A stretch of DNA of 64,000 nt from Candidatus Limnocylindrales bacterium. GTDB lineage: Bacteria > Chloroflexota > Limnocylindria > Limnocylindrales > CSP1-4. Positions 1 through 47,242 of this stretch are shown here, piece by piece. The position numbers were made by a program, and so were the translations under genes. How positions within the stretch are numbered: the stretch's first letter is position 1; every line of letters begins with the position of its first letter. The notes beneath the pieces are model-generated. The model ran no database searches. It was not told the origin of the DNA and saw nothing but the letters and a program-made list of their open reading frames with translations. The DNA is taken from positions 41,296 to 105,295 of the forward strand of contig JBEKPB010000006.1 in assembly GCA_049521175.1 (NCBI GenBank), given 5' to 3'.

Positions 1-816
1 GGTGCGCCACACAGCTTCCAGGCCGACCCGGTCGGCTGCGCCGGCGTGTTCGAAGGCGTATATCACCGGCAGTGTCATCTTGTGGCGGGCTACGTCGGTC
101 GGTTCCTTGCCCGTCGTCGCCTGCTCGCCCCAGATCCCGAGCAGGTCGTCGTTGAGTTGGAAGGCGATGCCGAGAGCCCAGCCGAAGGCGCGGTAGCGGG
201 CGATGATCTCCTCGTCGTCGGTGGCCAGGACGGCGCCGGCCTCGACCGAGGCGGCGATCAGGGCCGCAGTCTTTCGGCCGATCATGTCGAAATAGAGCTC
301 CACGGACATCGGCTCGGCGCGCTCGCTGGCCCAGATGTCGAGGTATTGGCCCTCGCACAGGGCCAGGCATGTGTCGTCGTGGAGCCTCATCAGTCGCAGG
401 ACCTTGGCGTCGGAGAAGCCCAGGTCCGTGAGCCTGTGGAGCGCCTTGCGGCTCAGAGTAAAGAGCAAGTCTCCGGCGTTGATCGCCTGCGGGATGCCAT
501 GGAGCGCCCATAGGGTCGGCCGGTGGCGGCGCTCGGTGTCGCCGTCCTCGATGTCGTCGTGGACCAGGCTGAAGTTGTGCCCGAGCTCCACGGCCGCCGC
601 TCCGGGCAGCGCGGCGCGGTAGTCGCCCGCGATCGAGGCGTAGGCCAGCAGCCCGAGCAACGGCCGCATCCGCTTTCCGGGGGAGCCGCTGCCGTCGAGC
701 CCGAGGTGGTACCGGCACATCGCATACAACTCGGCAGTCGGGATGTCCCGGTCGGAGACGAGCCGGAGGATCTCCTGCTCGGTATCTGCGAGCAGGTCGG
801 GTAGGGTCACGGGCAC
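1..816 (-). CDS. Polyprenyl diphosphate synthase (geranylgeranyl/farnesyl-PP synthase family); C-terminal end runs off window start
   Basis: Minus-strand translation gives GKRMRPLL, FSLVHDDIEDGD (first DDxxD motif) and FQLNDDLLGIWG (second motif). GTG start at complement 814-816. No stop before position 1. Confidence 0.85.
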   Translation of the reverse strand, partial: MPVTLPDLLADTEQEILRLVSDRDIPTAELYAMCRYHLGLDGSGSPGKRMRPLLGLLAYASIAGDYRAALPGAAAVELGHNFSLVHDDIEDGDTERRHRPTLWALHGIPQAINAGDLLFTLSRKALHRLTDLGFSDAKVLRLMRLHDDTCLALCEGQYLDIWASERAEPMSVELYFDMIGRKTAALIAASVEAGAVLATDDEEIIARYRAFGWALGIAFQLNDDLLGIWGEQATTGKEPTDVARHKMTLPVIYAFEHAGAADRVGLEAVWRT

Positions 817-944
817 TTGCACGCGCGGATCATAGCAACCGTCTTCAGGAATCGGCACCCACTGGCCGCTGGACGACCCCGCTGCCGAGCGACCCAAGGT
901 GTCCGGCGCTCCTGGTGGCCGCCGTCCCGACGACCCAGGCCGCC

Positions 945-1544
945 TCAGACGGGCTGGATGAAGGCCGAGCCCGGGAAGTCGTCCTCCGTGTCGTGCGGAC
1001 CCATCGGGCCGCCCTGGCGCATCTTGGCCGACGCCTCGTCGATCGTGACGTCGATCAGGTCCATGCGGGTCAAGTCCGTGTCCGCCGCAGGGGCGTAGTC
1101 GGCCGGCGTGCGCCGACCCGGGAAGTAGCGGTCGATCATGGCGTCGAGCAGGCGCCGCTTCTCGCTCACGTCCTCGATCAGACGGCCGCGTCCGTACGCC
1201 ACCACGCTGCGGTAGTTGGCCGAGTGGTCCGGCGCCGTCTTTGACGCGATGAGGTCGACCAGCTCGGTGACCGCGATCGCCACCGAGCGGCCATCGCGCA
1301 GCTGCCGGAGCGTGGCGTTGCCGGGAGAACCGTGCAAGTAGATGTGCCCCGATTCGTAGTGATAGAGAAACGGGATGAGGCGCGGCTCACCGTCCTCGAC
1401 GCAGGCTACGTGGGCAACCATGCCCGAGCACAGAAACTCCTCGATCCGGTCTGGGACGGCTCGATCGGCGTGGCGTCTGATTCGCGTCCGATCGGTTCGA
1501 GGACCGGGCACGGCGTAGTCGTTGGGGACGGCCTTCTCTTCCAT
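945..1544 (-). CDS. Pyridoxamine 5'-phosphate oxidase-family (PPOX-class, possibly F420/FMN-binding) protein
   Basis: 199-aa ORF with split-barrel-like N-terminus (CSGMVAHVACVEDGEPRLIPFLYHYESGHIYLHG), as in the Pyridox_oxase_2 family. Confidence 0.6.
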   Translation of the reverse strand: MEEKAVPNDYAVPGPRTDRTRIRRHADRAVPDRIEEFLCSGMVAHVACVEDGEPRLIPFLYHYESGHIYLHGSPGNATLRQLRDGRSVAIAVTELVDLIASKTAPDHSANYRSVVAYGRGRLIEDVSEKRRLLDAMIDRYFPGRRTPADYAPAADTDLTRMDLIDVTIDEASAKMRQGGPMGPHDTEDDFPGSAFIQPV

Positions 1545-1675
1545 GCCACAAGATTAGTGGCTGGGAATGGATCGCGGCGCCGGCGGCTCGCCCCGCGCCG
1601 TGCCCCAGCGGCCGCACACTGCCTGACCTGCGGTCCATGGCCGGCGCAGCGGCGGCATCGTGGTAGCGTGGTCCC

Positions 1676-2443
1676 GTGCCCGTTCCGCGCCTCTACGTCA
1701 CCGACGCGATCGTCCTGTCCCGCTTCGATTTCGGCGAGGCGGATCGGGTCATGACGCTCTTCACGCCCGAGCACGGCAAGCTCAAGGCGATCGCCAAGGG
1801 CGTGCGCCGGCCGACCAGCCGCCTGGGCGGAGCGCTCGAACCCCTGGCAGAACTGAGAGTGGCTCTGGCCCGCGGCCGGACCTTCGACGTGGTCACGCAG
1901 GTCGAGGTCACCCACGCCTGGCTGCGTCTGCGCGACTCGCTGGAGTCCGCCGCGACCGCCTGGTATCTGGCCGAGCTGGCGGACCGCTCGATCGAGGAAC
2001 GCCACGAGGCCGAGGGTCTCTATGCGCTGCTGCGCCGCGCCTACGAGCTGCTGGATGCCGGCATGGAGTCTGGCAGGGTCGCCCGCTGGTACGAGATGCA
2101 CCTGGCCGACGAGCTGGGCGTCCGCCCGGAGGTCGACCGCTGCGTCGAGTGCGACCGCATGCTCGAGCCGGACGAGCAGTTCCGGTGGGTGCCGCCGCTC
2201 GGCGGCCTGCTCTGCGCCCGCTGCCCCGGGCCGGCGATGGATCGGGCCGGCATCTCGGTCGATGCGGTCAAGGTGCTCAAGGCATACCAGCGGATGGATG
2301 TCGAGGCGCTTGCGGCGCTGCGCCTCCCGCCGGCAGTCGAGCGCGAGGTCGAAGGCGCGATGCGCGACTTCCTGCACGTCTCCCTCGAGCGCGACGCCCG
2401 CTCGCTCGATTTCCTCGACGAGGTCAGGCGAGGTTCGCGCTGA
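1676..2443 (+). CDS. recO: DNA repair protein RecO
   Basis: 255 aa. N-terminal OB-fold signature YVTDAIVLSRFDFGEADRVMTLFT. C-terminal zinc-finger CVECDR...CARC. Confidence 0.85.
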   Translation: MPVPRLYVTDAIVLSRFDFGEADRVMTLFTPEHGKLKAIAKGVRRPTSRLGGALEPLAELRVALARGRTFDVVTQVEVTHAWLRLRDSLESAATAWYLAELADRSIEERHEAEGLYALLRRAYELLDAGMESGRVARWYEMHLADELGVRPEVDRCVECDRMLEPDEQFRWVPPLGGLLCARCPGPAMDRAGISVDAVKVLKAYQRMDVEALAALRLPPAVEREVEGAMRDFLHVSLERDARSLDFLDEVRRGSR

Positions 2444-2457
2444 CGACGCCGGCCGCC

Positions 2458-3126
2458 CTATCGCTTGCGAGCGCGTCGGCGGCCCTTTGGCGCGCGAGCT
2501 CGAGCCCCGGTGCCGGCAACCGCCGGTCCGGTGCCGCGGAACTCGATCAGGTGCCGGCGCATGATGCCCTCGGTCCTGAGAACCGACATGGCCATCCCGC
2601 TGCCCAGCACCAGGTCGCCCCGGTTGATCCTGAGCATGATCCGGGCAACGGGGCCGAGGGCCTGCCGGTCGGCGAAGCCGCTGGGATCCTCGATCTGGAG
2701 CCTCAGCTCCCGTGGAGAATCCGGATACTTCCCGTCGCCGACGGTCGCAACCTCGTTCCATGATATCGGGCGCCGGCTGGGGAACGCCTCCCACCAGGAG
2801 GTCGGGCGGTTACCCGGGAACAGCTCGAACCCCTCCCTCGCGACCAGCAGGCGCACCGGGCTGGCCAGATGCTGCATGTCCATGAGGGAGCCCCTGATCC
2901 CGTATAGCACCAGCGTGAAGCCGCCGGCCGCATAGGCCAGACCGATGATCGTGTTTCCCGAGGACAGGTCGCCACTTCCCATGTAGGCGCCGAACAGTCC
3001 GAGCGGGACCATGCAGATCTCGAAGATCATCCTCAGCTTTGTCCTGCGGGTGTCGTCATAGATCGCGACCGCCGGCCCGAGGGCCGGGTGGCTGATCTTG
3101 GACTCGGCGGGCTGATCCGAAGCCAC
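2458..3126 (-). CDS. Hypothetical membrane protein (N-terminal TM pair plus PH-like/YdbS-like domain)
   Basis: 222-aa ORF immediately downstream of response regulator gene. Hydrophobic N-terminus. No recognisable catalytic motif. Confidence 0.4.
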   Translation of the reverse strand: MASDQPAESKISHPALGPAVAIYDDTRRTKLRMIFEICMVPLGLFGAYMGSGDLSSGNTIIGLAYAAGGFTLVLYGIRGSLMDMQHLASPVRLLVAREGFELFPGNRPTSWWEAFPSRRPISWNEVATVGDGKYPDSPRELRLQIEDPSGFADRQALGPVARIMLRINRGDLVLGSGMAMSVLRTEGIMRRHLIEFRGTGPAVAGTGARARAPKGRRRARKR

Positions 3127-3221
3127 GGGCTCTTCTCCTGACGATTGACGGGCGCCTCGCGCGCGCTGCCCATCATGACGGGTCAGGCCGGACCGGGTGC
3201 CGCGTTCGGCCGAGCCGAGAG

Positions 3222-3725
3222 CTACCCTCGGTCCGCCGAGATCGGGTCGGCGTCACGGGATGGGTCCTCGGGACCGCCGCCGCCGGCAGAACGAGCATTC
3301 GAGGTCGCGGTCTTGCGCGCCAGTGCCATGGCGACGCTGGACGCAAGCTGGTCGGCCGTGAACGGTTTTTGGAGCAGCAGCGCGCTGGCAGTGTGGGGCG
3401 CGGAAATCTCGGCGACGAGTTCGGGCGAGTACCCCGAAGTGAACAGAACGGCTGCCTCGGGGTGGCTGCGGTGCACTGCACCGGCGAGCACCGGGCCGCG
3501 CATGCGGGGCAGCATCACGTCGGTCAGAAGCAAGTCTATCGGCGTGGTGATTCGCGACGCCTGCGCGAGCGCGTCACGGCCGTCGCTCGAGACGATGACC
3601 TCGAAATTGAGGGCCTTCAACCACCTCGTGGTGATCCCGGCCACAGAAGGGTCGTCCTCGACGAGAAGTACCGTCAGAGGCCGCGTTGGCGTCGAAGACC
3701 GGACCTCATCCGGATCGGAACCCAT
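3222..3725 (-). CDS. Response regulator, receiver (REC) domain only, canonical Asp
   Basis: LTVLLVEDDP...IDLLLTDVMLPRMRG...LFTSGY...QKPF. Classic DD, D, T, K receiver residues. No output domain. Confidence 0.75.
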   Translation of the reverse strand: MGSDPDEVRSSTPTRPLTVLLVEDDPSVAGITTRWLKALNFEVIVSSDGRDALAQASRITTPIDLLLTDVMLPRMRGPVLAGAVHRSHPEAAVLFTSGYSPELVAEISAPHTASALLLQKPFTADQLASSVAMALARKTATSNARSAGGGGPEDPSRDADPISADRG

Positions 3726-3965
3726 GCCGAGTCCATACCTGCTTCACGCGCTCAGCATAGGCCTTCTCTGGGCCGGTTCAAACTCACCTATCGGCCGTGC
3801 AAGCTTCTTCGTTGCCAAGGCGGGTCGCACCCACCGGGCTCGCATGCGAGAATTACGCCCCGAGCGTCCAGCCGCTTGGCCGTCTCGAGATCCGAGCGGT
3901 TCGATCGCCCGCCCGTCCTAGATCAGCCCGCAGGAGGTTCACAGCCCCTGCCCGAGGAGACAAGA

Positions 3966-5378
3966 GTGACCGCCGCACAGCCGACACCGCCGGCCGACGA
4001 CCCGGGGCCTTCCGTCGCCAACCTCGAAACGATCGTCTCGCTGTCAAAGCGGCGCGGCTTCATCTTCCCGAGCTCGGAGATCTATGGCGGCATCAACGCC
4101 GTGTGGGATTACGGGCCACTCGGCGTCGAGCTCAAGAACAACGTCAAGCGAGCCTGGTGGCGGACCATGGTCCAGGAGCGCGACGACATCGTCGGCCTGG
4201 ACGCGGGCATCATCATGGCACCTCAGGTTTGGGTCACCTCCGGCCATGTCGCCAGCTTCACCGACCCACTCGTCGAGTGCCAGACTTGCCGGCGACGCTT
4301 CCGCCTCGACGAGCTGCCGGGCGCCGAGAACCTGACCAACACCGAGCTGGCCGACCCGACGGTCGTCGACCGCCTGGGCCTCAAGTGCCCGGTCGACGCC
4401 GGCCCGCTCTCCGCCCCGCGCCGCTTCAACCTGATGTTCAAGACCCACATGGGGCCGGTCGAGGAAGAGGGCAACGAGGTCTACCTGCGCCCGGAGACGG
4501 CCCAGGGCATCTACGTCAACTTCCGCAACGTCCGCGAGACGAGCCGTAAGAAGCTGCCGTTCGGCATTGCCCAGATCGGCAAGGCATTCCGCAACGAGAT
4601 CAGCCCCGGCAATTTCGTCTTCCGGATGCGCGAGTTCGAGCAGATGGAGATGCAGTACTTCGTCAAGCCCGAGACCGCGGCGGCTACGTTCGAGGCGTGG
4701 ATGCCAAAGCGCCTGGCCTGGTACGAGCGCTACGGCGTGACGCCCGAGCGGCTGCGCTTCCGCGAGCACCGCCCGGACGAGCTGGCCCACTACGCCAAGA
4801 AGGCCGTCGACATCGAGTACCGCTTCCCGTTCGGCTGGAAGGAGCTCGAAGGCATCCACAACCGCGGAGACTGGGACCTGGGCCGCCACCAGGAAGCCAC
4901 GGGCGAGAACCTCGAGTACTTCGATCCCGCCACCGAGGAGAAGTACGTGCCCTGGATCGTCGAGACCTCGGCCGGCGGCGATCGGGCGGCCTTCACGTTC
5001 CTGATCGACGCCTATCGTGAGGAAGAGGTCCGCGGCGAGAAGCGCGTCGTGCTGGGCTTCAACCCGGAGCTCGCCCCATACAAGGTGGCGGTCCTCCCGC
5101 TGCTCAAGAAGCGCGACGAGATCGTCGAGAAGTGCCACGCCATCCGCGACGATCTGGCCCGCGACATCATGGCGGTCTACGACGACACGGCCGCGATCGG
5201 CAAGCTGTACCGGCGCCAGGACGAGATCGGCACGCCGTGGTGCGTCACGGTCGACGTCGATTCACTGGAGGACGGCAAGGTCACGATCCGGGACCGCGAC
5301 TCGATGGAACAGATTCGGGTCGACATCTCGCAGGTGAAGCCGCTCATCCTCGAGCGGCTCGCGGAGGCAAGAGGTTAG
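3966..5378 (+). CDS. glyQS: Glycine--tRNA ligase (dimeric class II type)
   Basis: SLSKRRGFIFPSSEIYGG...WDYGPLGVELKNNVK motifs. GTG start at 3966 preceded by GGAGGA. About 470 aa. Confidence 0.9.
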   Translation: MTAAQPTPPADDPGPSVANLETIVSLSKRRGFIFPSSEIYGGINAVWDYGPLGVELKNNVKRAWWRTMVQERDDIVGLDAGIIMAPQVWVTSGHVASFTDPLVECQTCRRRFRLDELPGAENLTNTELADPTVVDRLGLKCPVDAGPLSAPRRFNLMFKTHMGPVEEEGNEVYLRPETAQGIYVNFRNVRETSRKKLPFGIAQIGKAFRNEISPGNFVFRMREFEQMEMQYFVKPETAAATFEAWMPKRLAWYERYGVTPERLRFREHRPDELAHYAKKAVDIEYRFPFGWKELEGIHNRGDWDLGRHQEATGENLEYFDPATEEKYVPWIVETSAGGDRAAFTFLIDAYREEEVRGEKRVVLGFNPELAPYKVAVLPLLKKRDEIVEKCHAIRDDLARDIMAVYDDTAAIGKLYRRQDEIGTPWCVTVDVDSLEDGKVTIRDRDSMEQIRVDISQVKPLILERLAEARG

Positions 5379-5384
5379 CGCGGG

Positions 5385-5409
5385 GTGGCAGCCATCGTGA
5401 GGGCCACCG
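5385..5409. terminator. Weak GC hairpin between convergent glyQS and Rieske genes
   Basis: ggtggc-N13-gccacc stem followed by a poor T-tract (ctttcttctt). Confidence 0.25.
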
Positions 5410-5463: not shown

Positions 5464-6333
5464 TCAGCCAACCCAACTCCGGACTTGCACTTTGCCCGCG
5501 ACCACCCTGACTTCGTAGCGGGCCTGGGGGAACGGGGCCGGGCCGCGTCCTACCGATCCGTCCGCCGTCCGGAAGCGCGAACCGTGCCACGGGCACGTCA
5601 CCTCGTCACCTCGAAGCGTCCCCTCGTGCAGCGGGCCCCCGGCATGGGAGCAGACCTCGCCGATCCCAGTAACGAGCTCGGCATGGCGAACCAGGAGGAC
5701 AGGCCGGCCATCCGCCTCGGCGTAGTTGAGTCCTTCGTTCAAATCGGACACGGGCCCGATCGTCACGAAGTCGTCGAGCGGCTCGCGGAAGGCATTGTGG
5801 TCGACCATCGATCCGAAGGCGAACGTCATCTCGCCGCCGAGAAATCCCCCGACCATCATCAGCCCGAAGCCGATGAACCCGAGGGCTCGACCGGCGAGCG
5901 AGTCTACCGGCCCCGAGAGCCGCACGATGCCGCTCGCGAGGAACAGGATCGTGACGCAAGCCATCACGAGGGCGTGCAGGATTCCGACGCGCTGCTCGAG
6001 CCCGTATGTGTCCTTGAAGTCGGTCAAGCCGGAGAGGACGGAGACGGCGGCGGCGGCCACACCCAGCCACAGCGCTACGGCCGCCGCCCCACTCAACCCT
6101 GCGCTCGGAACCGCGATCCCGATGGCGTCGAACGCCGCAACGACCGTCCAGGCACCGATCGCGACGCCGGTGATCATCGGATGGATCGGGTGTCCGAGCC
6201 ACGTCCCGGTGAGAAGGGACTGGAGCGGCCTGGCCCGGCGATAGAACGCGTCCGTCACGTCGGCGACCCAGCGTCCCAATCGATCGAGGCCCGGCACATG
6301 GCGGACGACTCGTACCACGACTCGTGATGCCAT
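5464..6333 (-). CDS. Rieske [2Fe-2S] domain protein with N-terminal DUF2231-like membrane domain
   Basis: C-terminal CSHAGGPL...CPWHGSRF Rieske boxes. N-terminal half has four or more hydrophobic helices. Confidence 0.65.
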   Translation of the reverse strand: MASRVVVRVVRHVPGLDRLGRWVADVTDAFYRRARPLQSLLTGTWLGHPIHPMITGVAIGAWTVVAAFDAIGIAVPSAGLSGAAAVALWLGVAAAAVSVLSGLTDFKDTYGLEQRVGILHALVMACVTILFLASGIVRLSGPVDSLAGRALGFIGFGLMMVGGFLGGEMTFAFGSMVDHNAFREPLDDFVTIGPVSDLNEGLNYAEADGRPVLLVRHAELVTGIGEVCSHAGGPLHEGTLRGDEVTCPWHGSRFRTADGSVGRGPAPFPQARYEVRVVAGKVQVRSWVG

Positions 6334-6513: not shown

Positions 6514-8001
6514 TCAGTGGGCCGCAGGAGCCTCCAACGGAACCTCGACCGGAGACGGAAGGTCGCCGCGCAGGTACGCGTCGATGTTGCGGGCAGCCTT
6601 CTTGCCGTCGCCCATGGCCAGGATGACCGTGGCCGCGCCGCGGACGATGTCGCCGCCGGCGAAGACGCCGTCCATCGAGGTCTCGAGGTTGCCGTCGATC
6701 TCGATGTAGCCCCACTTGTTGATGCGGAGGTCGGGCGAGGTGGAGGTCAGGAGCGGGTTGGACCTGGTCCCGATCGCGACCACGACCATCTCGCACGGGA
6801 AGACGAACTCGGAGCCGGGGATCTCGACCGGCCGCCGGCGCCCCGAGGCGTCGGGCTCGCCGAGCTCCATGCGGATGCACTTGAGGCCGGTGACCCAGCC
6901 CTTCTCGTCGCCGAGCACTTCGACCGGCGCGGTCAGGAACTCGAAGCGGACGCCTTCCTGCTCGGCGTGGTGGACTTCCTCGCTGCGAGCCGGCAGCTCG
7001 GTTCGGGAGCGGCGATAGACGCACACCGCCTCGGCGGCGCCCAGCCGGCGCGCGGTCCGGACCGAGTCCATGGCCACGTTGCCGCCGCCCACGACCGCCA
7101 CCCGCTGGCCGTGCAGGACCGGCGTGTTCGAGTCGGGGTTGTAGGCGCCCATCAAGTTGACGCGCGTCAGGTACTCGTTCGCGGAGTAGACACCCTTCAG
7201 GTTCTCGCCGGGCACGTTCATGAAGACCGGCAGGCCTGCGCCGACCGCCACGAAGACGGCGTCGAATTCGGCGCGCAGCTCGGGCAGGGTGTAGGTCTTG
7301 CCGATGATCGAGTTCGGGCGGATCTCGACGCCGTCGGCGACCAGACGATCGACTTCCTTCTGGACGATGTCCTTGGGCAGTCGGAACTCCGGGATGCCGT
7401 AGATCAGCACGCCACCCGCAGCGTGAAAGGCCTCGAAGATCGTGACCTTGTGGCCGTGCTTGGTGAGCTCTCCGGCGGCGGTCAGGCCGGCTGGGCCGGA
7501 ACCTATGATCGCGACCTTCTTGCCGGATGGTGCCGGCTTGGCGGCGGTGAAGACATCGCGGTTGTTGATCGCCCAGTCGGCCACGAAACGCTCGAGATAG
7601 CCGATCGCCACTGGCGTGCCGGTCTTGGCGCGCAGGCAGACCTGCTCGCACTGGGTTTCTTGCGGGCAGACGCGCCCGGTGACGCACGGCAGGGCGTTGT
7701 CGCCGAGCAGTGAATCGGCGGCCCCCTTGACGTCGCCCTCGCCGAGGAGGCGGATGAAGTTGGGAATGTTGACGGAAACCGGGCAGCCGTCGATGCAGTA
7801 CGGCTTGGGGCACTGCAGGCAGCGGTCGGCCTCCATGATGGCCAGCTGCTCGGTGTAGCCGAGGTTGACCTCGGCGAAGTTGCGGGCCCGAGCCATGGCG
7901 TCCTGCTCGGGCATGGACCCGCGCTGGATCTTCATCCGCTCCTTCTTGGGAAGCGGCTCGGCATGCGCGGCAGCGCGGGCGGATAGGGTCAGGTCGTCCA
8001 T
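6514..8001 (-). CDS. nfnB: GltD/SudA/NfnB-like NAD(P)H-dependent oxidoreductase, large subunit (2x[4Fe-4S] + FAD/NAD(P) Rossmann folds)
   Basis: 496 aa from ATG at complement 7999-8001 (MDDLTLSARA). CLQCPKPYCIDGCPV, VAIIGSGPAGLTAAGEL, VAVVGGGNVAMD motifs. The 636-aa six-frame ORF is an upstream over-extension. Confidence 0.85.
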   Translation of the reverse strand: MDDLTLSARAAAHAEPLPKKERMKIQRGSMPEQDAMARARNFAEVNLGYTEQLAIMEADRCLQCPKPYCIDGCPVSVNIPNFIRLLGEGDVKGAADSLLGDNALPCVTGRVCPQETQCEQVCLRAKTGTPVAIGYLERFVADWAINNRDVFTAAKPAPSGKKVAIIGSGPAGLTAAGELTKHGHKVTIFEAFHAAGGVLIYGIPEFRLPKDIVQKEVDRLVADGVEIRPNSIIGKTYTLPELRAEFDAVFVAVGAGLPVFMNVPGENLKGVYSANEYLTRVNLMGAYNPDSNTPVLHGQRVAVVGGGNVAMDSVRTARRLGAAEAVCVYRRSRTELPARSEEVHHAEQEGVRFEFLTAPVEVLGDEKGWVTGLKCIRMELGEPDASGRRRPVEIPGSEFVFPCEMVVVAIGTRSNPLLTSTSPDLRINKWGYIEIDGNLETSMDGVFAGGDIVRGAATVILAMGDGKKAARNIDAYLRGDLPSPVEVPLEAPAAH

Positions 8002-8834
8002 CAGTGGGCCTCCGCGTGCGAGGCCTGCCAGCGCTCGAGGGCGGCCTGTTCGAATTCCCGGTAGGTAGTGAGCCGGTCGGCCAGCAGCCGGAAGTCGACC
8101 TTGTGGCCGTCGAACTCCGGGCCGTCCACGCAGGCGTACTGACTCTTGCCGTCGATGGCGACACGGCAGCCGCCGCACATGCCCGTCCCGTCGATCATGA
8201 TCGAGTTCAGCGAGACCGTCGTCTTGATGCCGTACGGCCGGGTCAGCTCGGAGCAGGCCCGCATCATCGGCACCGGACCGACGGCGAAGACCTCGTCGAT
8301 ACCGCCGGCTTCGCACAGGTCCTTGAGGGCCTCGGTCACGAAACCGTGGCGGCCGTAGCTGCCGTCGTCGGTGCAGACGATCACGTCGCCTGCGGCCCGC
8401 AGCTCGTCCTCGTAGATGACCCACTCCTTCGAGCGGCCACCGATGACGCTCGTCACCTTCACGCCGTTCCTGGCGAGGGCCTGGGCGATGGGGTAGACAA
8501 CCGCGGTGCCGACTCCGCCACCGACGCAGACCGCATGCCCGGCTTCCAGCAGCTCCGTGGGCCGGCCAAGCGGCCCGGCCACGTCCGTTATCGCGTCGCC
8601 GACCTGGAGCGTGGTCAGCTCGCTCGTGCTCGCTCCGATGGCCTGGATCACCAGGCTGATCGTCCCGGCCGACTTGTCGACGTCGGCGATGGTCAGAGGG
8701 ATGCGTTCCGCTCCGGGCCCGCGACGCACGATCACGAACTGCCCCGGCTGCCGGATCTCGGCAATGCGGGGCGCCTCGACGACGAGGCGGGTGACGTTCG
8801 GGGAAAGCTGGGACCTGGCGACTATGGGGTGCAT
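8001..8834 (-). CDS. nfnA: SudB/NfnA/PyrK-like FAD + [2Fe-2S] electron-transfer subunit
   Basis: 277 aa. C-terminal GTGMCGGC...C cluster motif. Stop overlaps nfnB start (ATGA). Confidence 0.8.
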   Translation of the reverse strand: MHPIVARSQLSPNVTRLVVEAPRIAEIRQPGQFVIVRRGPGAERIPLTIADVDKSAGTISLVIQAIGASTSELTTLQVGDAITDVAGPLGRPTELLEAGHAVCVGGGVGTAVVYPIAQALARNGVKVTSVIGGRSKEWVIYEDELRAAGDVIVCTDDGSYGRHGFVTEALKDLCEAGGIDEVFAVGPVPMMRACSELTRPYGIKTTVSLNSIMIDGTGMCGGCRVAIDGKSQYACVDGPEFDGHKVDFRLLADRLTTYREFEQAALERWQASHAEAH

Positions 8835-9074
8835 CTCACTCCGGTGGCATGGGGCGGCAAATATCGCTTGCTAAGGCAGTATGAATTACGGCAATGGTGG
8901 CCGTTGAAGGCCCTCGCCGGCACGCCCGGTGTGTACCTGTCGGCCGGGCCGAAGGTCACAACGTGAAACCCTCGGAACGGGTGGGCTCCCGGGTCGAGCG
9001 GCGGCTACCAGCCTAGCAGCGAACGGGTCATCGCGTGGATCTGGTTCAGTGGGACGGGCCCGAGCGACCCAGGC

Positions 9075-9470
9075 CTAGGGTTTGACCGCCGCCGGGTCGG
9101 CTCCGTGCCACTCCTCGTGGCCCGGCCGCGCGCCATCGAGACCCGCTTCCGCCCGAAGGTGAACGCGCCGGGCGTCGACGGACATCGACAGGCTCTTCTT
9201 GTTGCAGACCTCGACGCATACGCCGCACGCGATGCACGTCAGCTGCTCGATGGCCCAGTAGCGGTCGTCGCGGGAGGCGGTGATGGCGACCGCGGGGCAG
9301 CGCCGCGCGCAGAGCATGCAGAAGTTGCAGGACTCCACGTCGAACTCGATCGTGCCGCGCGCCCCAGCGAAGCGCGGCCGGACCTCGGTCGGGTAGAGGC
9401 GGGTTGCCGGTCGTGAGACCAGGTTGCGGAGCGACCGCCGGACCATGGGCAGGGTGAGGGGATTGGCCAT
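9075..9470 (-). CDS. echF: Ech hydrogenase subunit F (2x[4Fe-4S] ferredoxin, NuoI-like)
   Basis: CNFCMLCARRCP and CIACGVCVEVCN motifs. Last gene of the operon. Confidence 0.8.
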   Translation of the reverse strand: MANPLTLPMVRRSLRNLVSRPATRLYPTEVRPRFAGARGTIEFDVESCNFCMLCARRCPAVAITASRDDRYWAIEQLTCIACGVCVEVCNKKSLSMSVDARRVHLRAEAGLDGARPGHEEWHGADPAAVKP

Positions 9471-9471
9471 C

Positions 9472-10557
9472 TCAGCGCTCCGTGCAGCTGATGCATGGAT
9501 CGATGGTCAGGATGATGTTCGGCACGTCGGCGAGGTCGCAGCCCTTGACCAGCTTGATCATCGCCGGGATGTTGGCGAAGGTCGGGGTGCGAGCCCGGAA
9601 CCGCTCGAGGTTCTTTGTGCCATTGGCCTTGACGTAGTAGAGGACTTCGCCGCGGGGCTGCTCGAGGCGGGTGAACGTCTCGCCAGCGGGCAATCCGCGC
9701 GGGCGGTTCTCGATCGGCTGGCCCTCGCCCTTTGGCATCTTGTCGATCGCCTGGCGGACGATGTCGATCGACTGGTCGATCTCGCGCATCCGGACGAGGA
9801 CCCGAGCGAGGCAGTCGCCGGCGGTCTCGACTACCGGCTCCAGCTCGACTCGATCGTAGAAGTTCGCGCCCAGGAGTCGCGTGTCGGTGGCGATGCCCGA
9901 GGCGCGGGCCATCGGGCCGACAGCATCGACCGCACGCGCGTCCTCGGTCGTCAGCACTCCGACGCCGCCGAGCCGGTGGGCGATCGAGGGATCTGTCCTG
10001 AAGACCCGGGCCGTGTCTTTGAATGCGGCGCCCAGCTCCTGCAGCTGGACGAGGATGGCCGCGAGTTCGGAGTCGGCGATGTCGCGCTTGACTCCGCCGA
10101 TGCGGTTGACCGAGTGGATGATCCGGCCGCCGGTCGTCTTCTCGAAGATGTCGAGGATCTGCTCGCGCATCCGCCAGCAATGCATGAAGAGGTTCTCGAA
10201 CCCGAACGCATCGGCGCCCAAGCCGAGCCAAAGCAGGTGGCTCTGGATCCTCGAGATCTCGGCCCAGATCAGGCGCAGCCAGCCGGCTCGCTCTGGGACC
10301 TCGACGTTCATGATGCTTTCGAGCGAGACGCAGTAACCCATGCCGTGCATGAAGCTGCAGATGCCGCAGATGCGCTCGACCACGAAGCCCATCTCGGTGT
10401 ACTCCACCCGCTCGACCATCATCTCGAGGCCGCGGTGGATGTAGCCGATGGTCGGGATGGCGTCCACGACCTTCTCGTCCATCAGCACGAGGTCGAGCAC
10501 CAGCGGCTCCGGCAGGACCGGATGCTGCGGCCCGAATGGGATGACAGTCTTCTTCAT
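9472..10557 (-). CDS. echE: [NiFe]-hydrogenase large subunit, group 4 (Ech/Coo type, NuoD-like)
   Basis: MKKTVIPFGPQHP start. L1 motif RICGICSFMHGMGY. L2 motif DPCISCTER at the extreme C-terminus with no cleavable extension. 361 aa. Confidence 0.9.
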   Translation of the reverse strand: MKKTVIPFGPQHPVLPEPLVLDLVLMDEKVVDAIPTIGYIHRGLEMMVERVEYTEMGFVVERICGICSFMHGMGYCVSLESIMNVEVPERAGWLRLIWAEISRIQSHLLWLGLGADAFGFENLFMHCWRMREQILDIFEKTTGGRIIHSVNRIGGVKRDIADSELAAILVQLQELGAAFKDTARVFRTDPSIAHRLGGVGVLTTEDARAVDAVGPMARASGIATDTRLLGANFYDRVELEPVVETAGDCLARVLVRMREIDQSIDIVRQAIDKMPKGEGQPIENRPRGLPAGETFTRLEQPRGEVLYYVKANGTKNLERFRARTPTFANIPAMIKLVKGCDLADVPNIILTIDPCISCTER

Positions 10558-11069
10558 GGCTTCTTCACCGCCGCCGCGTTTGCCTTGAGCCGGGCCTTGA
10601 TCGCGGCATGCGAGAAGGGGACCCGGGTCGCGGTCTTGTACAGCTGGCCGTGCAGGTCCAAGCCGATGCCGGTTACGTTGATGCCGAACAGCTCCCGGAT
10701 CTCGTTCTCGTAGAGGAACGCGGCCCCGAAGAGCTCGGATACGCTCGGCACCGCCTCGCCGGCCTCGATCTGCTCGCGAATCGTCTCGAACTCGTTGCCC
10801 CTGGCGAAGGCCCAGGCGATTTCGAAGACGCCGGGCGCCTCGACCGCCGGCGGAGCCACTGGGGCCGATGGCGCGGGCGGGGTCGCCGGCGCGGGTACTT
10901 CGCCGGCCGAGGTTGGCGCGCCAGCCCCCGTGGTCGCGGCTTCGGCCGTCGTCACGTGGCCGTGCGTCCCTGCCGCAGGCGCCACGACCGTCGTGGCGTT
11001 GATGAGGGCCAGACGCCAGCCGGCCTCGTGGTATGCCCCGACTCGGGCGAGGAAAGCGCTGCCGTCCAT
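10555..11069 (-). CDS. echD: Ech hydrogenase subunit D (NuoC-like) with Ala/Pro/Thr-rich insert
   Basis: ENEIRELFGINVTGIGLDLHG NuoC signature. Internal ATG MDGSAFLARV chosen as start. ATGA overlaps with echC and echE. Confidence 0.7.
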
Positions 11070-11494
11070 CAGGCCGTCTTCTTTCGTTTCTCTTCGAGCG
11101 CGGCGATGCCCTCCACGACGCCGTCGATGATGCTTTCGGGGCGCGCCGCGCAGCCGGGCACGTAGACGTCCACCGGCAGCACCTTGTCGATCCCGCCCTG
11201 GATGTTGTAGGCGCGGGCGAAGATGCCTCCGGAGCACGCACACGCCCCGACCGCAACCACGACCTTGGGCTCGGGCATCTGGCGGTACAGGTTCTTCACG
11301 ATCTCGACGTTGCGTTCGTTCACGCTGCCGGTCACGAGCAGGATGTCGGCGTGCTTCGGGTTCCCCGTGTTGATCACTCCGAACCGCTCCACGTCGTAGA
11401 GCGGCGTCAGGCAGGCCAGGACTTCGATGTCGCAGCCGTTGCAGCTCGATCCGTCGTAGTGGAGGATCCATGGTGAGCGGCGGAAGAAGGACAT
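11069..11494 (-). CDS. echC: [NiFe]-hydrogenase small subunit, group 4 (NuoB-like)
   Basis: MSFFRRSPWILHYDGSSCNGCDIE...GACACSGG...VPGCAARPE. Proximal cluster cysteines. 141 aa. Confidence 0.85.
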   Translation of the reverse strand: MSFFRRSPWILHYDGSSCNGCDIEVLACLTPLYDVERFGVINTGNPKHADILLVTGSVNERNVEIVKNLYRQMPEPKVVVAVGACACSGGIFARAYNIQGGIDKVLPVDVYVPGCAARPESIIDGVVEGIAALEEKRKKTA

Positions 11495-11499
11495 CTCGA

Positions 11500-12354
11500 T
11501 CACCGGCCCAGCAGGAATAGAGCGAGCACGTTGCCGCCCGAGAAGACCAGGGTGGCAACCCAGGTGGAGCGCAGGACGAGCTGCCACTTGATGCGCGACG
11601 TGGAGTTGTCGAGCAGGATCTCCAGGGCGTAGGCGACGAGGAAGGCGACCAGACCCAGGGCCACGCTCCAGTTGAAGAGCAGGACCATGAAGGCGCACAG
11701 CAGCGCCGACTCGTACCAGCGTGCCAGCTCGACGTAGGCCAGCAGCCGGCCCGACATGTCGGACTTGAGACCGCTCACGAGCTCCTGGTGGGGGTGGTGC
11801 GACATCGAGATGTCGAATGGCGACTTCCGAAGCTTGATCGTCGCGACCATCAGGAACGCCAGCAGAACGCCCGGCAGCTGTGCGGCCACGAGCTGGCTCG
11901 ACGCAAGGACGCCCTCGAAAGTGTTCGCGCCGGTCACCTTGCAGATGGCGGCCATCATCAGGATGAAGAACGGTTCGGCCGCGAGCAGCACGACGAGCTC
12001 GCGTTCGGCACCGGTGAAGCTATACGGGGAGTTGGCCGACCCGGCGGCGAGGACCAGCAGCAGCGCCGCCAGGGCGAAGACGAACGTCGTGAAGATCAGG
12101 TCTGTGCCGCTCAAGAGCAGCGCGCCGGTGGCGGCCATGAAGATGAGGTGGCCCACCAGGATCGGCTCCATGATCGGGTTGAGCTGCCGCGACTGCTTCT
12201 GCAGCAGCTTGCCGACGTCGTAGAACGGCTGCAGCAGCGGCGGCCCGACACGGCCCTGCATCCGCGCGCTGATCCTGCGGTCCACGCCGGCCACGAGCCC
12301 ACCGAAGATCGGGGCGAGGCCGAGGAAGAGCAGCCCGTAGATCGCCGGGTTCAT
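11500..12354 (-). CDS. echB: Ech hydrogenase membrane subunit B (NuoH/HycD-like)
   Basis: 284-aa polytopic protein from ATG MNPAIYGLLFLGLAPI. ATGA overlap with echA stop. Confidence 0.8.
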   Translation of the reverse strand: MNPAIYGLLFLGLAPIFGGLVAGVDRRISARMQGRVGPPLLQPFYDVGKLLQKQSRQLNPIMEPILVGHLIFMAATGALLLSGTDLIFTTFVFALAALLLVLAAGSANSPYSFTGAERELVVLLAAEPFFILMMAAICKVTGANTFEGVLASSQLVAAQLPGVLLAFLMVATIKLRKSPFDISMSHHPHQELVSGLKSDMSGRLLAYVELARWYESALLCAFMVLLFNWSVALGLVAFLVAYALEILLDNSTSRIKWQLVLRSTWVATLVFSGGNVLALFLLGR

Positions 12355-14288
12355 GGTCGGGCCACCATCCCAACCGTGACCATAGCCACCAGGATTCCGC
12401 CACAGGCGACTGTCCCGGCACGGAACATCAGGGCGCCGTTGATAACCCCGTCGAGGTAGTAGTTGCGGAGGGTCACCTTCTTGATGCCGCCCAGCGCCGC
12501 ACCCATGACGTGGCCTGGGGTGGTGCTGCGACCGCCGGCGTAGAAGTCCGCGTGGTCGTATACGGGATGGCGCCACACCCAGAGGGACAAGAGCGGCAGG
12601 AAGAGCATCGCGGCCATGAGCACGGCCAGCGTCGCTGGGTCCAGGGCGAGGAAAGTGCGGGGTGCGGCGGAGAAGGCGCTGAGTGCGTACGGACCGACGA
12701 CGTGGTCCGAGATGAGGCCGACGCACGCCGCAGCGGCGATCACGCCGATCGCCATCGGGATCTCGGTCGCCCACTCGTAACGCGAGACCCGGCTCTCGAT
12801 CGAGCGTTCGTAGGCGGTCACCTTCCGCGCGGACAGCACCTTCATGAGGAGCTTGCCCCAGTAGAAGATCGTCAGCGAGCTGCCGAACGCCATGATCACG
12901 ACCATCGCGGCGCCGGCGGCGCCGGGCACGAGCAGGAACGCCCGGATGGCGGTCCATTTGGCGATGACGAGCCCGAACGGAGCCACGAACATCCCGGCGA
13001 TGCCGGTCAAGAACAGCGTGCTGATGCGCGGCATAAGGCTCATCAGCGCGTCGAAGTTTTCCATGTTCTTCGTGTAGAGCCGGTTCTCGATGGTCCCAAC
13101 GACCAGGAAGAGCAGGCCCTTGGCCAGGGCGTGGAAGATGATGATCATCACCCCGGCCCACGCCAGCTCCGGCGTCCCGATGCCTGCACAACCGACGATC
13201 AACCCCAGGCTGCCGATCGTTGAATAGGCGAGGACCTTCTTGGTGTTCTGCTCCGTCACGGCTACGAGCGAAACGAAGAGGAACGTCAGCAGCCCGACGA
13301 AAGCCACGAGATAGCCCACCGTCGAACCCGACATAGCCGGGGACAGGCGCAGTAGCAGGAAGACGCCGGCCTTGACCATCGTGCTGGAGTGGAGCAGCGC
13401 CGAGGTTGGGGAAGGGGCGTACATGGCGCCGATCAGCCACGAGCTGAATGGCATCTGCGCGCTCTTGGTGATGCCGGCGAAGGCGAGGAGTGCGATGGCC
13501 GGTAGAAGTGCCGCTCCGGCCGGACCGTGGGTGAGCCTGGCCAGGTCGAGGCCGTCCGCCTGACCCGACAGCCACACGATGGCCAGCCCGAACCCCAGCC
13601 CGCCCAGGAGGTTCATGTTGAGCGCCCTGAAGGCATACCGGACCGTCTCTTCGGTCCGCGTGTAGCCGATCAGCAGGAACGAGCAGATGGTCGTGATCTC
13701 CCAGAAGACCAGCATCATCGGCAGGTAGTTCGACACGACCAGCCCGAACATGCCCGCCAGGAAGACGAACAGCAGTGAGAAGAAGACCGTGCGGCGGCCC
13801 TGGATCATCGGGCTGGCACGGTGGTAGGCCCGCATGTACCCGATCGCGTTGATGCAGATCAGCGGGCCGATGATCCCGACCACGAGCACCATCACCAGCG
13901 AGAGGCGGTCGAACCAGAAGAGCCGCGAGGGGTCCGGCTCGGGCAGGCGGCCGGCCACTTCGAGCCAGACGGAGATGCCCAGCTGGGTGAGGGCCAGGAT
14001 CGGCGCCGGGAACCGGCGATGCATCAGGCTGATCACCACCACGAAGGCGGTGAGCGCGATCTCGACGGCCAGCAGCGCCTGCCCCGGTTCGAGTCCGCCC
14101 GGGAGACCGAAGAAGGCGCCGTCGCCGTTACCGAATGCGACCGCGGCCGCGACCGAGATGGCGGCGACGAGCAATCCGCCAACCACCACGACCGCGTTTC
14201 GGAGCGCGGACGAGGAGATCAGGATCAGGATCGCGCCGACGATCGCGGGCAGCGCGATGAGGGCGGCGACGAGAGAGGGAAGACTCAC
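12351..14288 (-). CDS. echA: Ech hydrogenase membrane subunit A (NuoL/HyfB/Mrp antiporter-like)
   Basis: About 645 aa. Hydrophobic throughout. Proposed GTG start (VSLPSLVAALIALPAIVGA) overlaps the stop of the upstream receiver gene (GTGA). Confidence 0.75.
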   Translation of the reverse strand: MSLPSLVAALIALPAIVGAILILISSSALRNAVVVVGGLLVAAISVAAAVAFGNGDGAFFGLPGGLEPGQALLAVEIALTAFVVVISLMHRRFPAPILALTQLGISVWLEVAGRLPEPDPSRLFWFDRLSLVMVLVVGIIGPLICINAIGYMRAYHRASPMIQGRRTVFFSLLFVFLAGMFGLVVSNYLPMMLVFWEITTICSFLLIGYTRTEETVRYAFRALNMNLLGGLGFGLAIVWLSGQADGLDLARLTHGPAGAALLPAIALLAFAGITKSAQMPFSSWLIGAMYAPSPTSALLHSSTMVKAGVFLLLRLSPAMSGSTVGYLVAFVGLLTFLFVSLVAVTEQNTKKVLAYSTIGSLGLIVGCAGIGTPELAWAGVMIIIFHALAKGLLFLVVGTIENRLYTKNMENFDALMSLMPRISTLFLTGIAGMFVAPFGLVIAKWTAIRAFLLVPGAAGAAMVVIMAFGSSLTIFYWGKLLMKVLSARKVTAYERSIESRVSRYEWATEIPMAIGVIAAAACVGLISDHVVGPYALSAFSAAPRTFLALDPATLAVLMAAMLFLPLLSLWVWRHPVYDHADFYAGGRSTTPGHVMGAALGGIKKVTLRNYYLDGVINGALMFRAGTVACGGILVAMVTVGMVARP

Positions 14289-20117: not shown

Positions 20118-21685
20118 CTTAGAGCCTGAGAACCAATCGTATTGGGCAAAGGCGGGCGATTGGATCAGGCTTTCGCGAAGTTGATCGGGGAGCGGGACCA
20201 TCGAGATGTTGTCCAGACACGGCCCGCGGCGCAGTGGAGCGACGGGGGTGGCGATGGTGACGTTCCGCCCCGGGTGCCTCGCGTCAGGCGGCGCTGGCCG
20301 CTGAGCGCAATGCCGCTGTCCGCATGAGGTTGTGAGCCAGGGCGAACCAGAGGAGCACGGCTCTGGCCTTCGCCCTGCCTCGGACGCCGAAGCGCTGCAG
20401 GCCTCGATTGCGGGCGATGGCGTTGACGCACTCGGCGGTGGCGGCCCGGTCTTTGTAGATCTCCTTCGCTTGCGGCGTGCCCATCCGAGTGCGCCAGTCG
20501 GCAACGGCGGGCGAGTCCGATGGAAGCGGCAGATACGGGTCGCGACCCCGGACCTCAGGGGTGCGGACTGGCAGGTAGAGGGTCGTGCCGGCTTCGGGGG
20601 CAGCGAACTCCTCGATCTCGGCGCTGGCCAGAAAGCCGGCGTCGGCGAGCCAGGCGCCTGGTGCGCGGCCGTATCTCGTGCGTAGCTGGCGAACCATCGG
20701 GCCAAGCTGGCCTGATCGGTGCCAGCGTTGGTCAGGTCCAGTCCGACGATGACCTGGCTGCCCGTATCGGTCACGAGCTGGGCGTTGTATGCGGGTCTCC
20801 AGCCGCCGTCGGCCATCTTCATGACGCGGGCCTCCGGATCGGTTGTGGAGGCCCGGGCATCCTCTGGGGGCTTGCCGCGCTTGGCGTTGCGCTTCTTGGC
20901 GGCTTCGAGTGCCGGCAGATGGGCGAGAGCATGTCGAACCCTCTCGGCCCGCTCTCGTGTGGCCCGCTCTCTCGCTGCGGCGACCCGCCGACTGCTTGCA
21001 CCCGGGTCGTCATCGAGTTCGTTCTTGAGGGCGCGGACCTGGGCATCGGCTTGTGCGAGGAAGCGCTCGAGTCTGTCTCGGCGGCGGTATGAAGCCGCAC
21101 CTGCGGCTGCTCGGACCCGGACGCCGTCCTGGGCGACCGCGACCATGGTCACCAGGCCATCGGCCAGGAGCGCCGCGACGCTCTCTGTGAGGAGCCGATC
21201 GAGGACATCGGCGTGCTCGACCCGGAACGCCGCGAGGGTGTGATAGTTGAGCCCGACCCCGCCGGCAAGCCAGCGGTATCCATCGTGCTCCTCACACAGC
21301 CGGTCGAGCGCCCTGGCGCTGCCGACGCCTTCGAGCGTCGCGTACAGCCACAGCGCCACGAGGATTGCAGGATCGATCGGTGGCCGTCCCGGATGGCCCT
21401 CGATTGCCTTGATGCGCGTATACAGCGGCGTGAGATCGAGCCCCTCCACGAAGGCCCACACGAGGCGAGCCCGATGGTCGGGGCCGAGGAGGCCGTCGAG
21501 ATCGACCGAACGCAGCTCGAGCTGGCCCCGGTTCGGTAGCTGGAGGCGCGGTACGCCTGCCGCCTCCTGGTGCTCGTCTGGCTCGGCGAGTGGGAGTGCG
21601 AAGAGAGTGTCGTCCATGCCGAGAATCGTAGCTGCGAGGAGGTCGGCTGGGAATCCCTGAAACCAATAGATTCACAGGCTCTTAG
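20118..21685. mobile_element. IS1182/IS5-family insertion sequence (about 1.57 kb) with imperfect terminal inverted repeats
   Basis: Left end cttagagcctgagaaccaatcgtattgg at 20118-20145. Right end ccaatagattcacaggctcttag at 21663-21685. The ends match 16/19 positions as an inverted repeat. Encodes one transposase. Confidence 0.65.
20284..21617 (-). pseudogene. IS1182/IS5-family DDE transposase, split by a frameshift near 20.69 kb
   Basis: N-terminal frame LAEPDEHQ...RLQLPNRGQLEL...TDPEARVMKMADGGWRPAYNAQ. C-terminal motifs LADAGFLASAEI...KEIYKDRAATAECVNAIARNRGLQRFGVRGRAKA are in another frame (20284-20697). The six-frame ORF 19761-21617 reads through into merR antisense. Confidence 0.65.
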
Positions 21686-47166: not shown

Positions 47167-47242
47167 GCTCCGGCGTAGCTCAGTCGGTAGAGCGGGCGGC
47201 TGTTAACCGCTTGGTCGTAGGTTCGAGTCCTACCGCCGGAGC
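47167..47242 (+). tRNA. tRNA-Asn (anticodon GTT)
   Basis: GCTCCGG acceptor stem pairing with CCGGAGC. TAGCTCAGTCGGTAGAGC D-arm. Anticodon loop CTGTTAA. GGTTCGAGTCC T-arm. CCA not encoded. Confidence 0.9.

Follow-up and report, generated by a model that had tools for sequence, protein, structure and literature searches.

In a 64,000-nucleotide stretch of DNA from a Candidatus Limnocylindrales bacterium (Chloroflexota; GenBank assembly GCA_049521175.1, contig JBEKPB010000006.1, positions 41,296 to 105,295), hereafter called the window, we found a complete set of genes matching an Ech-type membrane-bound [NiFe]-hydrogenase, echABCDEF, followed on the same strand by a pair of genes that by sequence encode the transhydrogenase NfnAB. 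We think it likely that these are two known and self-sufficient redox enzymes that lie next to each other by descent, are transcribed as separate units and share a ferredoxin pool. All eight genes (echABCDEF, nfnA and nfnB) are intact and lie on the minus strand, reading 5' to 3' as a receiver-domain gene, echA, echB, echC, echD, echE, echF, a spacer, nfnA, nfnB and a gene for a DUF2231–Rieske protein, within a window whose G+C content is about 68% throughout. Genes were placed in window coordinates by mapping open reading frames with codon-position G+C content, translation and the public gene calls for contigs with an identical EchE, and domains were assigned by Pfam and NCBIfam profile searches of the called proteins (Table 1). 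Related loci used for comparison are designated by L numbers.

An Ech-type hydrogenase with a complete set of ligands

The six ech genes encode, in order, an antiporter-like, a NuoH-like and a NuoB-like protein, EchD, a NuoD-like protein and a NuoI-like protein, an arrangement that is collinear with 74 Ech loci of other phyla. Domain calls and public gene calls thus bear out the six subunits in canonical order that a first-pass annotation of this DNA had proposed. The 1- to 4-nt overlaps that it described between the ech genes hold at three junctions, with 4-nt GTGA/ATGA overlaps between echA and echB and between echD and echE, and a 1-nt overlap (TGATG) between echC and echD; the receiver gene and echA also overlap by 4 nt in this way. 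They do not hold for echE and echF, which are separated by a 1-nt spacer, and echB and echC share a 4-nt overlap only with a GTG start, public calls taking an ATG 5 nt past the echB stop.

The large subunit EchE carries the L1 motif RICGICSFMH (C64 and C67) and the L2 motif DPCISCTER (C355 and C358), both as first described, and the four cysteines and the terminal Glu-Arg are invariant in 11 of 11 homologues with 66–92% identity, leaving the CxxC pairs by which EchE had been set apart from NuoD present and unchanged. The echE stop codon directly follows the CTER sequence at residue 361, confirming that there is no extension, and the homologues end alike; because EchE ends at its mature C-terminus, no C-terminal protease step would be needed. 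EchC has cysteines at residues 21, 24, 88/90 and 118 as ligands for one [4Fe-4S] cluster and scores 139.9 bits against NF005012, above the cut-off of 116, and EchF contains two CxxCxxCxxxC motifs, at residues 48 and 79.

Over all subunits, identity to the echABCDEF loci of Bacillota, Spirochaetota and Verrucomicrobiota is 56–63%, with Anaerocolumna xylanovorans and Pseudobacteroides cellulosolvens as the nearest cultured relatives of EchE (59–61% identity), and EchE homologues carry the JGI label 'ech hydrogenase subunit E'. Ech (echABCDEF; HydDB group 4e) is found in Methanosarcina barkeri, Desulfovibrio gigas, Caldanaerobacter/Thermoanaerobacter and Acetivibrio thermocellus. In a survey of such clusters, 4e comprises the minimal six-gene set and 4g has the Ech2-type organisation (PMC13582414). 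Judged by its gene order, its ligands, the lack of a C-terminal extension and its nearest cultured relatives, the hydrogenase described here fits an Ech-type, group 4e-like enzyme, a placement that is indirect as regards 4e against 4g.

With known Ech, this hydrogenase shares the six subunits and their order, both large-subunit CxxC pairs, the lack of a C-terminal extension, a NuoB-like small subunit, a ferredoxin-type subunit with two [4Fe-4S] clusters and two membrane subunits. It differs from them in that its operon opens with a translationally coupled receiver-only gene in which glutamate replaces the phospho-aspartate, in an Ala/Pro-rich insert in EchD and a lineage-specific tail on EchF, in having only hypAB adjacent, hypCDEF not being in the window, and in its host, a Limnocylindria-like Chloroflexota bacterium of 68% G+C. 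Mbh (6CFW) and the formate hydrogenlyase subunit HycE (7Z0S) have the same large-subunit fold, Ni-Fe ligands and DPCxSCT(D/E)R terminus but are far more distant than bacterial Ech, with end-to-end alignments of EchE scoring 227 bits for MbhL and 219 bits for HycE; Mbh also has Mrp-type modules, and formate hydrogenlyase is coupled to formate dehydrogenase.

Two subunits show lineage-specific sequence. The insert in EchD is an Ala/Pro/Thr-rich low-complexity segment of about 50 residues (residues ~28–80), and EchD is the least conserved subunit, being 40–51% identical in relatives whose EchE is 77–91% identical. The C-terminal tail of EchF (residues ~104–131, window positions 9,075–9,160) carries a conserved RPG(H/R)EEW(H/R) motif, here RPGHEEWH; Ech of other phyla lacks this tail, which is found in the Limnocylindria-like lineage alone.

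Identity of the downstream pair

The two genes that begin 240 bp downstream of echF on the same strand were correctly recognised at first pass as a PyrK-like and GltD-like pair, although they overlap by 1 nt (TGATG, position 8,001) and not, as reported then, by ATGA. Searched against solved structures, the larger protein, NfnB, scored 522 bits with the Thermotoga maritima enzyme (4YLF_B) and 512 bits with Pyrococcus furiosus NfnI-L (5JCA_L), while the smaller, NfnA, scored 304 bits with the small subunit of P. furiosus NfnI (5JCA_S), 251 bits with T. maritima 4YLF_A and 168 bits with NfnII/Xfn. Both [4Fe-4S] sites and both dinucleotide sites expected of NfnB were found, the former as cysteines at residues 61, 64, 69, 73, 106, 112, 118 and 122 together with E137 (in YLERF), which aligns with Glu126, the site-differentiated [4Fe-4S] ligand, and the latter as the GSGPAG and GGGNVA motifs. 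The NADP(H) motif YRR lies at residue 329, and the equivalent of Arg325 is kept. NfnA has the motif DGTGMCGGCRx10CV at residue 215 (DGTGMCGGCRVAIDGKSQYACV), an Asp-plus-three-Cys [2Fe-2S] site that matches the DGTGMCGxCRx10CV motif with its Asp ligand reported for NfnA (PMC6405883).

Huang et al. 2025 (PMC12221290) tell bifurcating NfnB from monofunctional Fnor by three features: an extended N-terminus, Arg333 and an nfnA gene that precedes nfnB by a few nucleotides. All three features are present here, with 60 residues before the first cysteine pair (61/64, against Cys42/45 in PfNfnI-B), R339 (in ELPARSEE) aligned with Arg333 of PfNfnI-B, near the bifurcating flavin adenine dinucleotide (FAD), and nfnA overlapping nfnB. 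A glutamate synthase (GltBD) operon was considered and rejected: the neighbours are nfnA, the DUF2231–Rieske gene and proS, and gltB, for the large subunit, was found neither near nfnAB in the window nor in related loci. A diaphorase of the sulfhydrogenase type (HydG/ShyC gamma), offered at first pass as an alternative, had to be dropped, with scores of 38.3 bits for NF040835 (cut-off 650) and 35.7 bits for NF040830 (cut-off 600); it would also be unfit because the sole hydrogenase present is a group-4 Ech and not a group-3 enzyme.

Because the structure scores, the Fnor discriminators and the ligand motifs all agree, no gltB is present and the sulfhydrogenase models fall far below their cut-offs, we conclude from sequence that the pair is NfnAB, as the first-pass annotation had suggested. 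It is very improbable that the pair is instead a glutamate synthase small-subunit system, a monofunctional Fnor or NfnII/Xfn. In favour of such a reading, NCBIfam labels the large subunit, by its top match, 'NADPH-dependent glutamate synthase' (TIGR01316), and structures of GltD (the glutamate synthase small chain) match it at 329–335 bits. Against it, NfnB structures score far higher, NfnA is much closer to NfnI-S than to Xfn, gltB is missing nearby and the discriminators from Fnor point to NfnB.

The pair shares with known NfnAB its two-subunit architecture, the order nfnA then nfnB and every cofactor ligand, and neither protein has extra domains relative to the soluble T. maritima and P. 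furiosus enzymes. It differs in that NfnB is longer by about 20 residues at the N-terminus and by about 15 at the C-terminus, and in a conserved, unclassified non-coding element upstream of the genes. The nfn neighbourhoods listed in a review do not include a position beside Ech (PMC6405883).

Proposed electron flow through a common ferredoxin pool

Ech oxidises reduced ferredoxin and couples this to the formation of H2 and the translocation of ions, and NfnAB uses reduced ferredoxin and NADH to reduce two NADP+, both reversibly (reviewed in PMC5861303 and PMC6405883). In the mechanism that we propose, the receiver gene and echABCDEF would form a seven-gene operon for an Ech-type membrane-bound [NiFe]-hydrogenase, into which the divergently encoded HypA and HypB would insert nickel and which would translocate ions across the membrane as it interconverts reduced ferredoxin and 2 H+ with H2. 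The soluble ferredoxin pool would be the sole meeting point of Ech and Nfn. In fermentation under oxygen limitation, the oxidation of 2-oxoacids would reduce ferredoxin, which would then be either vented as H2 by Ech, conserving energy, or joined with NADH by Nfn to yield NADPH. By way of this common pool, the cluster would allow its host, when oxygen runs short, to get rid of low-potential electrons or to put them to use. The electron-routing module postulated at first pass is thus retained in part: a functional link through shared ferredoxin is plausible, whereas co-transcription of the two gene sets is unsupported by the comparison of relatives.

We favour a fermentative, H2-evolving role because hypB is followed by a gene for pyruvate phosphate dikinase (PPDK) and because ech in L124 lies after ack-pta and before the gene for a small ferredoxin. 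Rather unlikely, in our estimate, is operation in the uptake direction, in which Ech would, as in Methanosarcina barkeri, draw on the ion gradient to reduce ferredoxin with H2, and Nfn would hand these electrons on to biosynthetic NADPH, making the host an H2 scavenger. In its favour, it is established that each of the two enzymes works in both directions (reviewed in PMC5861303 and PMC6405883), and the ech genes of L123, 72% identical in EchE, lie behind a [FeFe]-hydrogenase-like histidine kinase that suggests regulation by H2, although such a sensor-like kinase is compatible with either direction. The ack-pta and ferredoxin setting in L124 is fermentative, however, PPDK adjoins the cluster, and there is no sign in the window of a ferredoxin-consuming fixation pathway.

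Conservation of the ech–nfnAB neighbourhood

Direct adjacency of ech and nfnAB was found in five lineages (the window, L089 with L117, L115, L116 and L121), with gaps of 270–390 bp in L089/L117, L115 and L116. In four Chloroflexota genomes (L005, L006, L007 and L029), nfnAB follows ech at a distance of 0.8–3.6 kb, the inserts encoding proteins unrelated to either enzyme (XdhC-like; methyltransferase and VOC-family, on the opposite strand; CapA-like), and insertions between echF and nfnA also occur in L095, L113 and L118. Thus, the two gene sets are not contiguous and on the same strand wherever both occur, as a single ech–nfn operon would have them. Most informative is L110, where a frameshifted remnant of hypB (residues 116–217) abuts a remnant of EchF (residues 86–123) at positions 4,916–5,270 of the reverse complement, and a deletion therefore extended from inside hypB to inside echF; the receiver gene and echA–E are gone, and nfnAB (89–91% identical) and its upstream element are intact. 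The receiver gene and ech occur without nfnAB in L009, which has none within 10 kb, and in L122 (77%), and nfnAB is also missing near ech in L123 (72%) and L124 (66% EchE identity). Among the loci of other phyla, an nfnA homologue was found near ech in 0 of 74, of which 61 extend for at least 3 kb past echF.

The best reading of this distribution is that the adjacency of ech and nfnAB is limited to a Limnocylindria-like lineage of Chloroflexota and represents an ancestral neighbourhood. Because genes have been inserted between them, because the upstream element travels with nfnA and because the deletion in L110 retained nfnAB, ech and nfnAB are probably separate transcription units, with nfnAB under its own upstream control.

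Several observations weigh against this account. In the window and at least four other lineages, echF and nfnA share a strand and lie only 200–390 bp apart, and the arrangement is kept over a range of EchE identity from 100% to 78%, possibly through selection and not inertia. A simple scan detected neither a sigma-70-type promoter nor an intrinsic terminator in the gap, so that read-through is possible. Pfam annotation of the 64-kb window found no hypCDEF, no PFOR and no stand-alone ferredoxin, which leaves the pathway unanchored.

These points would in part suit the view that ech and nfnAB form one co-transcribed and possibly physically associated electron-routing module that would act as a unit between H2, ferredoxin and NAD(P)H in either direction, with the EchF tail as a possible dock for Nfn. 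Its case consists of the shared strand, the 240-bp gap with no terminator detected, adjacency preserved in five distinct lineages with EchE identity as low as 78%, and an EchF tail (RPGHEEWH) confined to that broad lineage. We nevertheless regard it as improbable, since echF and nfnA are kept apart in relatives by inserted genes, of which some lie on the opposite strand, L110 lost ech and kept nfnAB, L009 has the EchF tail with no nfnAB within 10 kb, NfnA and NfnB have no added domain compared with soluble enzymes, and the adjacency is missing from all 74 other Ech loci.

Outside Chloroflexota, a GltD-like gene was seen next to ech at one Ech locus only, in the Verrucomicrobiia metagenome-assembled genome VER1 (L065, 11,479–12,804), where a GltD/NfnB-like gene (34% identity) directly follows echF with no nfnA. 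Its product may be a monofunctional Fnor-type partner of Ech.

A conserved element upstream of nfnA

The gap between echF and nfnA contains a conserved non-coding element with its core at ~8,905–8,990 on the minus strand. Within it lies an invariant 13-mer, TGACCTTCGGCCC, at 8,958–8,946, flanked by ACCCG and ACYGG; about 45 nt before the nfnA start, at ~8,875–8,890, is another conserved box, TAAyTCATACTG. Aligning the regions upstream of nfnA placed the element 77–94 nt ahead of the gene in 14 distinct loci, whatever the upstream neighbour, and the 13-mer core is kept in L121 despite differing flanks. A pattern scan of metagenome contigs returned 12 further copies, 12 of 12 upstream of nfnA, plus 24 chance matches in coding regions.

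A DNA-level regulatory site seems the most likely nature of the element. We also considered a structured RNA, which was rejected: a three-helix model derived from 5 sequences failed when extended to 14 (consensus −6.25 kcal/mol, one compensatory pair). Folding of the whole gap was no better than that of shuffled sequence (z = −0.45), and Rfam gave no family in the gap at permissive E-values, the best match being nrdJ at 16.9 bits against a gathering score of 40.3; across the whole window at gathering thresholds, the sole Rfam match is a tRNA at 47,169–47,241. A leader peptide, prompted by the ATG or GTG with which the 13-mer begins, was rejected, as the in-frame stops vary in position and none of the three codon positions shows any variation. 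A regulon was likewise rejected, with 8 near-matches to the 13-mer elsewhere in the window, against about 3 expected, and no similarity in their flanks.

A receiver without its phospho-aspartate at the start of the operon

The ech operon starts one gene before echA, with a receiver-only gene whose stop codon overlaps the echA start (GTGA); the first-pass annotation had omitted both this gene and the adjacent, divergent hypAB. Alignment with CheY (D57) and Spo0F (D54) showed that VVLE or VVME replaces the phospho-Asp motif, while the DD pair, the Thr and the Lys are kept and a conserved insert, QDRDGGW(L/I)PV, is present. Glutamate stands in place of the phospho-aspartate in 9 of 9 Limnocylindria-like loci (the window, L005, L007, L009, L089, L095, L116, L121 and L122), and the protein looks like a phosphorylation-independent pseudo-receiver within the ech operon.

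Upstream of ech in L123 (JGI 3300061213 contig, positions 806–5,386; EchE 72% identical) are genes for a histidine kinase with a Pfam Fe_hyd_lg_C domain, a hybrid kinase and three receiver-only proteins, of which two are paralogues of the receiver in the window and retain the aspartate. The kinase, with its [FeFe]-hydrogenase large-subunit domain, is a putative H2 sensor, and because the Asp-bearing paralogues follow it, the arrangement hints that the Glu receiver in the window is a remnant of an H2-sensing cascade. A joint reading of these features would have a Glu receiver of H2-sensing descent control or partner Ech without any need for phosphorylation, TGACCTTCGGCCC act as a new cis-element on nfnAB, and NfnAB possibly dock on the EchF tail. 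We consider this combination doubtful; if true, it would constitute a lineage-specific regulatory layer coordinating H2, ferredoxin and NADPH metabolism.

Locus layout

The features of the locus are collected in Table 1.

Table 1. Genes and other features of the ech–nfnAB locus, in window coordinates
Feature	Position	Strand	Basis
hypB, CobW/HypB-type Ni-insertion GTPase, 223 aa	15,250–15,921	+	Pfam cobW, public gene calls; position retained in L121
hypA, Ni metallochaperone, 115–118 aa	14,906–15,253	+	Pfam HypA; conserved in L121
Stand-alone receiver-domain protein, 128 aa	14,285–14,671	−	Pfam Response_reg 47.5 bits
echA, antiporter-like NuoL/Mrp-like membrane subunit, 645 aa	12,351–14,288	−	Pfam Proton_antipo_M 137.7 bits, Proton_antipo_N; NuoL/MrpA/HyfD-like matches
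echB, NuoH-like membrane subunit, 284 aa	11,500–12,354	−	Pfam NADHdh 111.7 bits
echC, NuoB-like small subunit, 144 or 141 aa	11,503 or 11,494 to 11,069	−	Pfam Oxidored_q6 116.5 bits
echD, weakly NuoC-like, 171 aa	10,554–11,069	−	Pfam Complex1_30kDa 26.2 bits
echE, [NiFe] large subunit, 361 aa	9,472–10,557	−	Pfam NiFeSe_Hases and Complex1_49kDa
echF, NuoI-like subunit with two [4Fe-4S], 131 aa	9,075–9,470	−	Fer4 family matches
echF–nfnA spacer with conserved element, 240 bp	8,835–9,074	−	Alignment of nfnA upstream regions
nfnA (NfnS), FAD/NAD(H) subunit, 277 aa	8,001–8,834	−	NF004862 384.8 bits (cut-off 220)
nfnB (NfnL), two [4Fe-4S], bifurcating FAD, NADP(H) site, 495 aa	6,514–8,001	−	TIGR01316 588.7 bits (cut-off 471.75)
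DUF2231 membrane domain fused to Rieske [2Fe-2S] domain	5,464–6,333	−	

The DUF2231–Rieske gene follows nfnB on the same strand after a 180-bp interval, with proS beyond it; it was not detected at the equivalent position in L005 and L007 and is absent from L121, in which proS comes directly after nfnB. On the other side, about 1.3 kb past PPDK, a DDE transposase fragment (DDE_Tnp_1_6; 20,284–20,697, minus strand) adjoins a MerR/GyrI-like regulator. By Pfam annotation, the window outside the locus consists of housekeeping genes.

Distribution and significance

The first-pass annotation had considered Ech uncommon in a genome of this kind, a view that public data overturn. The exact EchE sequence is present in 93 public data blocks, on metagenome contigs as long as 157 kb, and sequences at least 66% identical to it fall into more than 120 clusters at 90% identity; Ech of this type is therefore common in the environment, not rare. 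The nearest genomes by EchE are the Chloroflexota metagenome-assembled genome fen_1053 (91%) and uncultured Chloroflexia (86% and 77%). The Candidatus Limnocylindrales metagenome-assembled genome GCA_036392215.1 (L121; EchE 78%) has the same synteny as the window, PPDK-hypBA<>RR-echABCDEF-nfnAB-proS-recO, where RR is the receiver gene and <> marks divergence. Outside the lineage, EchE identity is at most 63% (Bacillota, Spirochaetota, Verrucomicrobiota and others), and all loci are collinear with echABCDEF. A search of the available literature library for Ech or Nfn in Chloroflexi or Limnocylindria found no published description.

Neither complex is a new enzyme or implies a new mechanism, as both are textbook members of their families, and the more original leads lie in the aspartate-to-glutamate receiver encoded with ech and in the conserved element ahead of nfnAB. 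The locus indicates that Chloroflexota of the Limnocylindria/Ellin6529 type, which are abundant in peat and soil, possess an Nfn transhydrogenase next to a complete energy-converting hydrogenase that is linked to ferredoxin. This suggests that, when oxygen is scarce, these bacteria may produce H2 by fermentation or use H2 to reduce ferredoxin, and would be useful to metabolic models of carbon and H2 cycling in wetlands.

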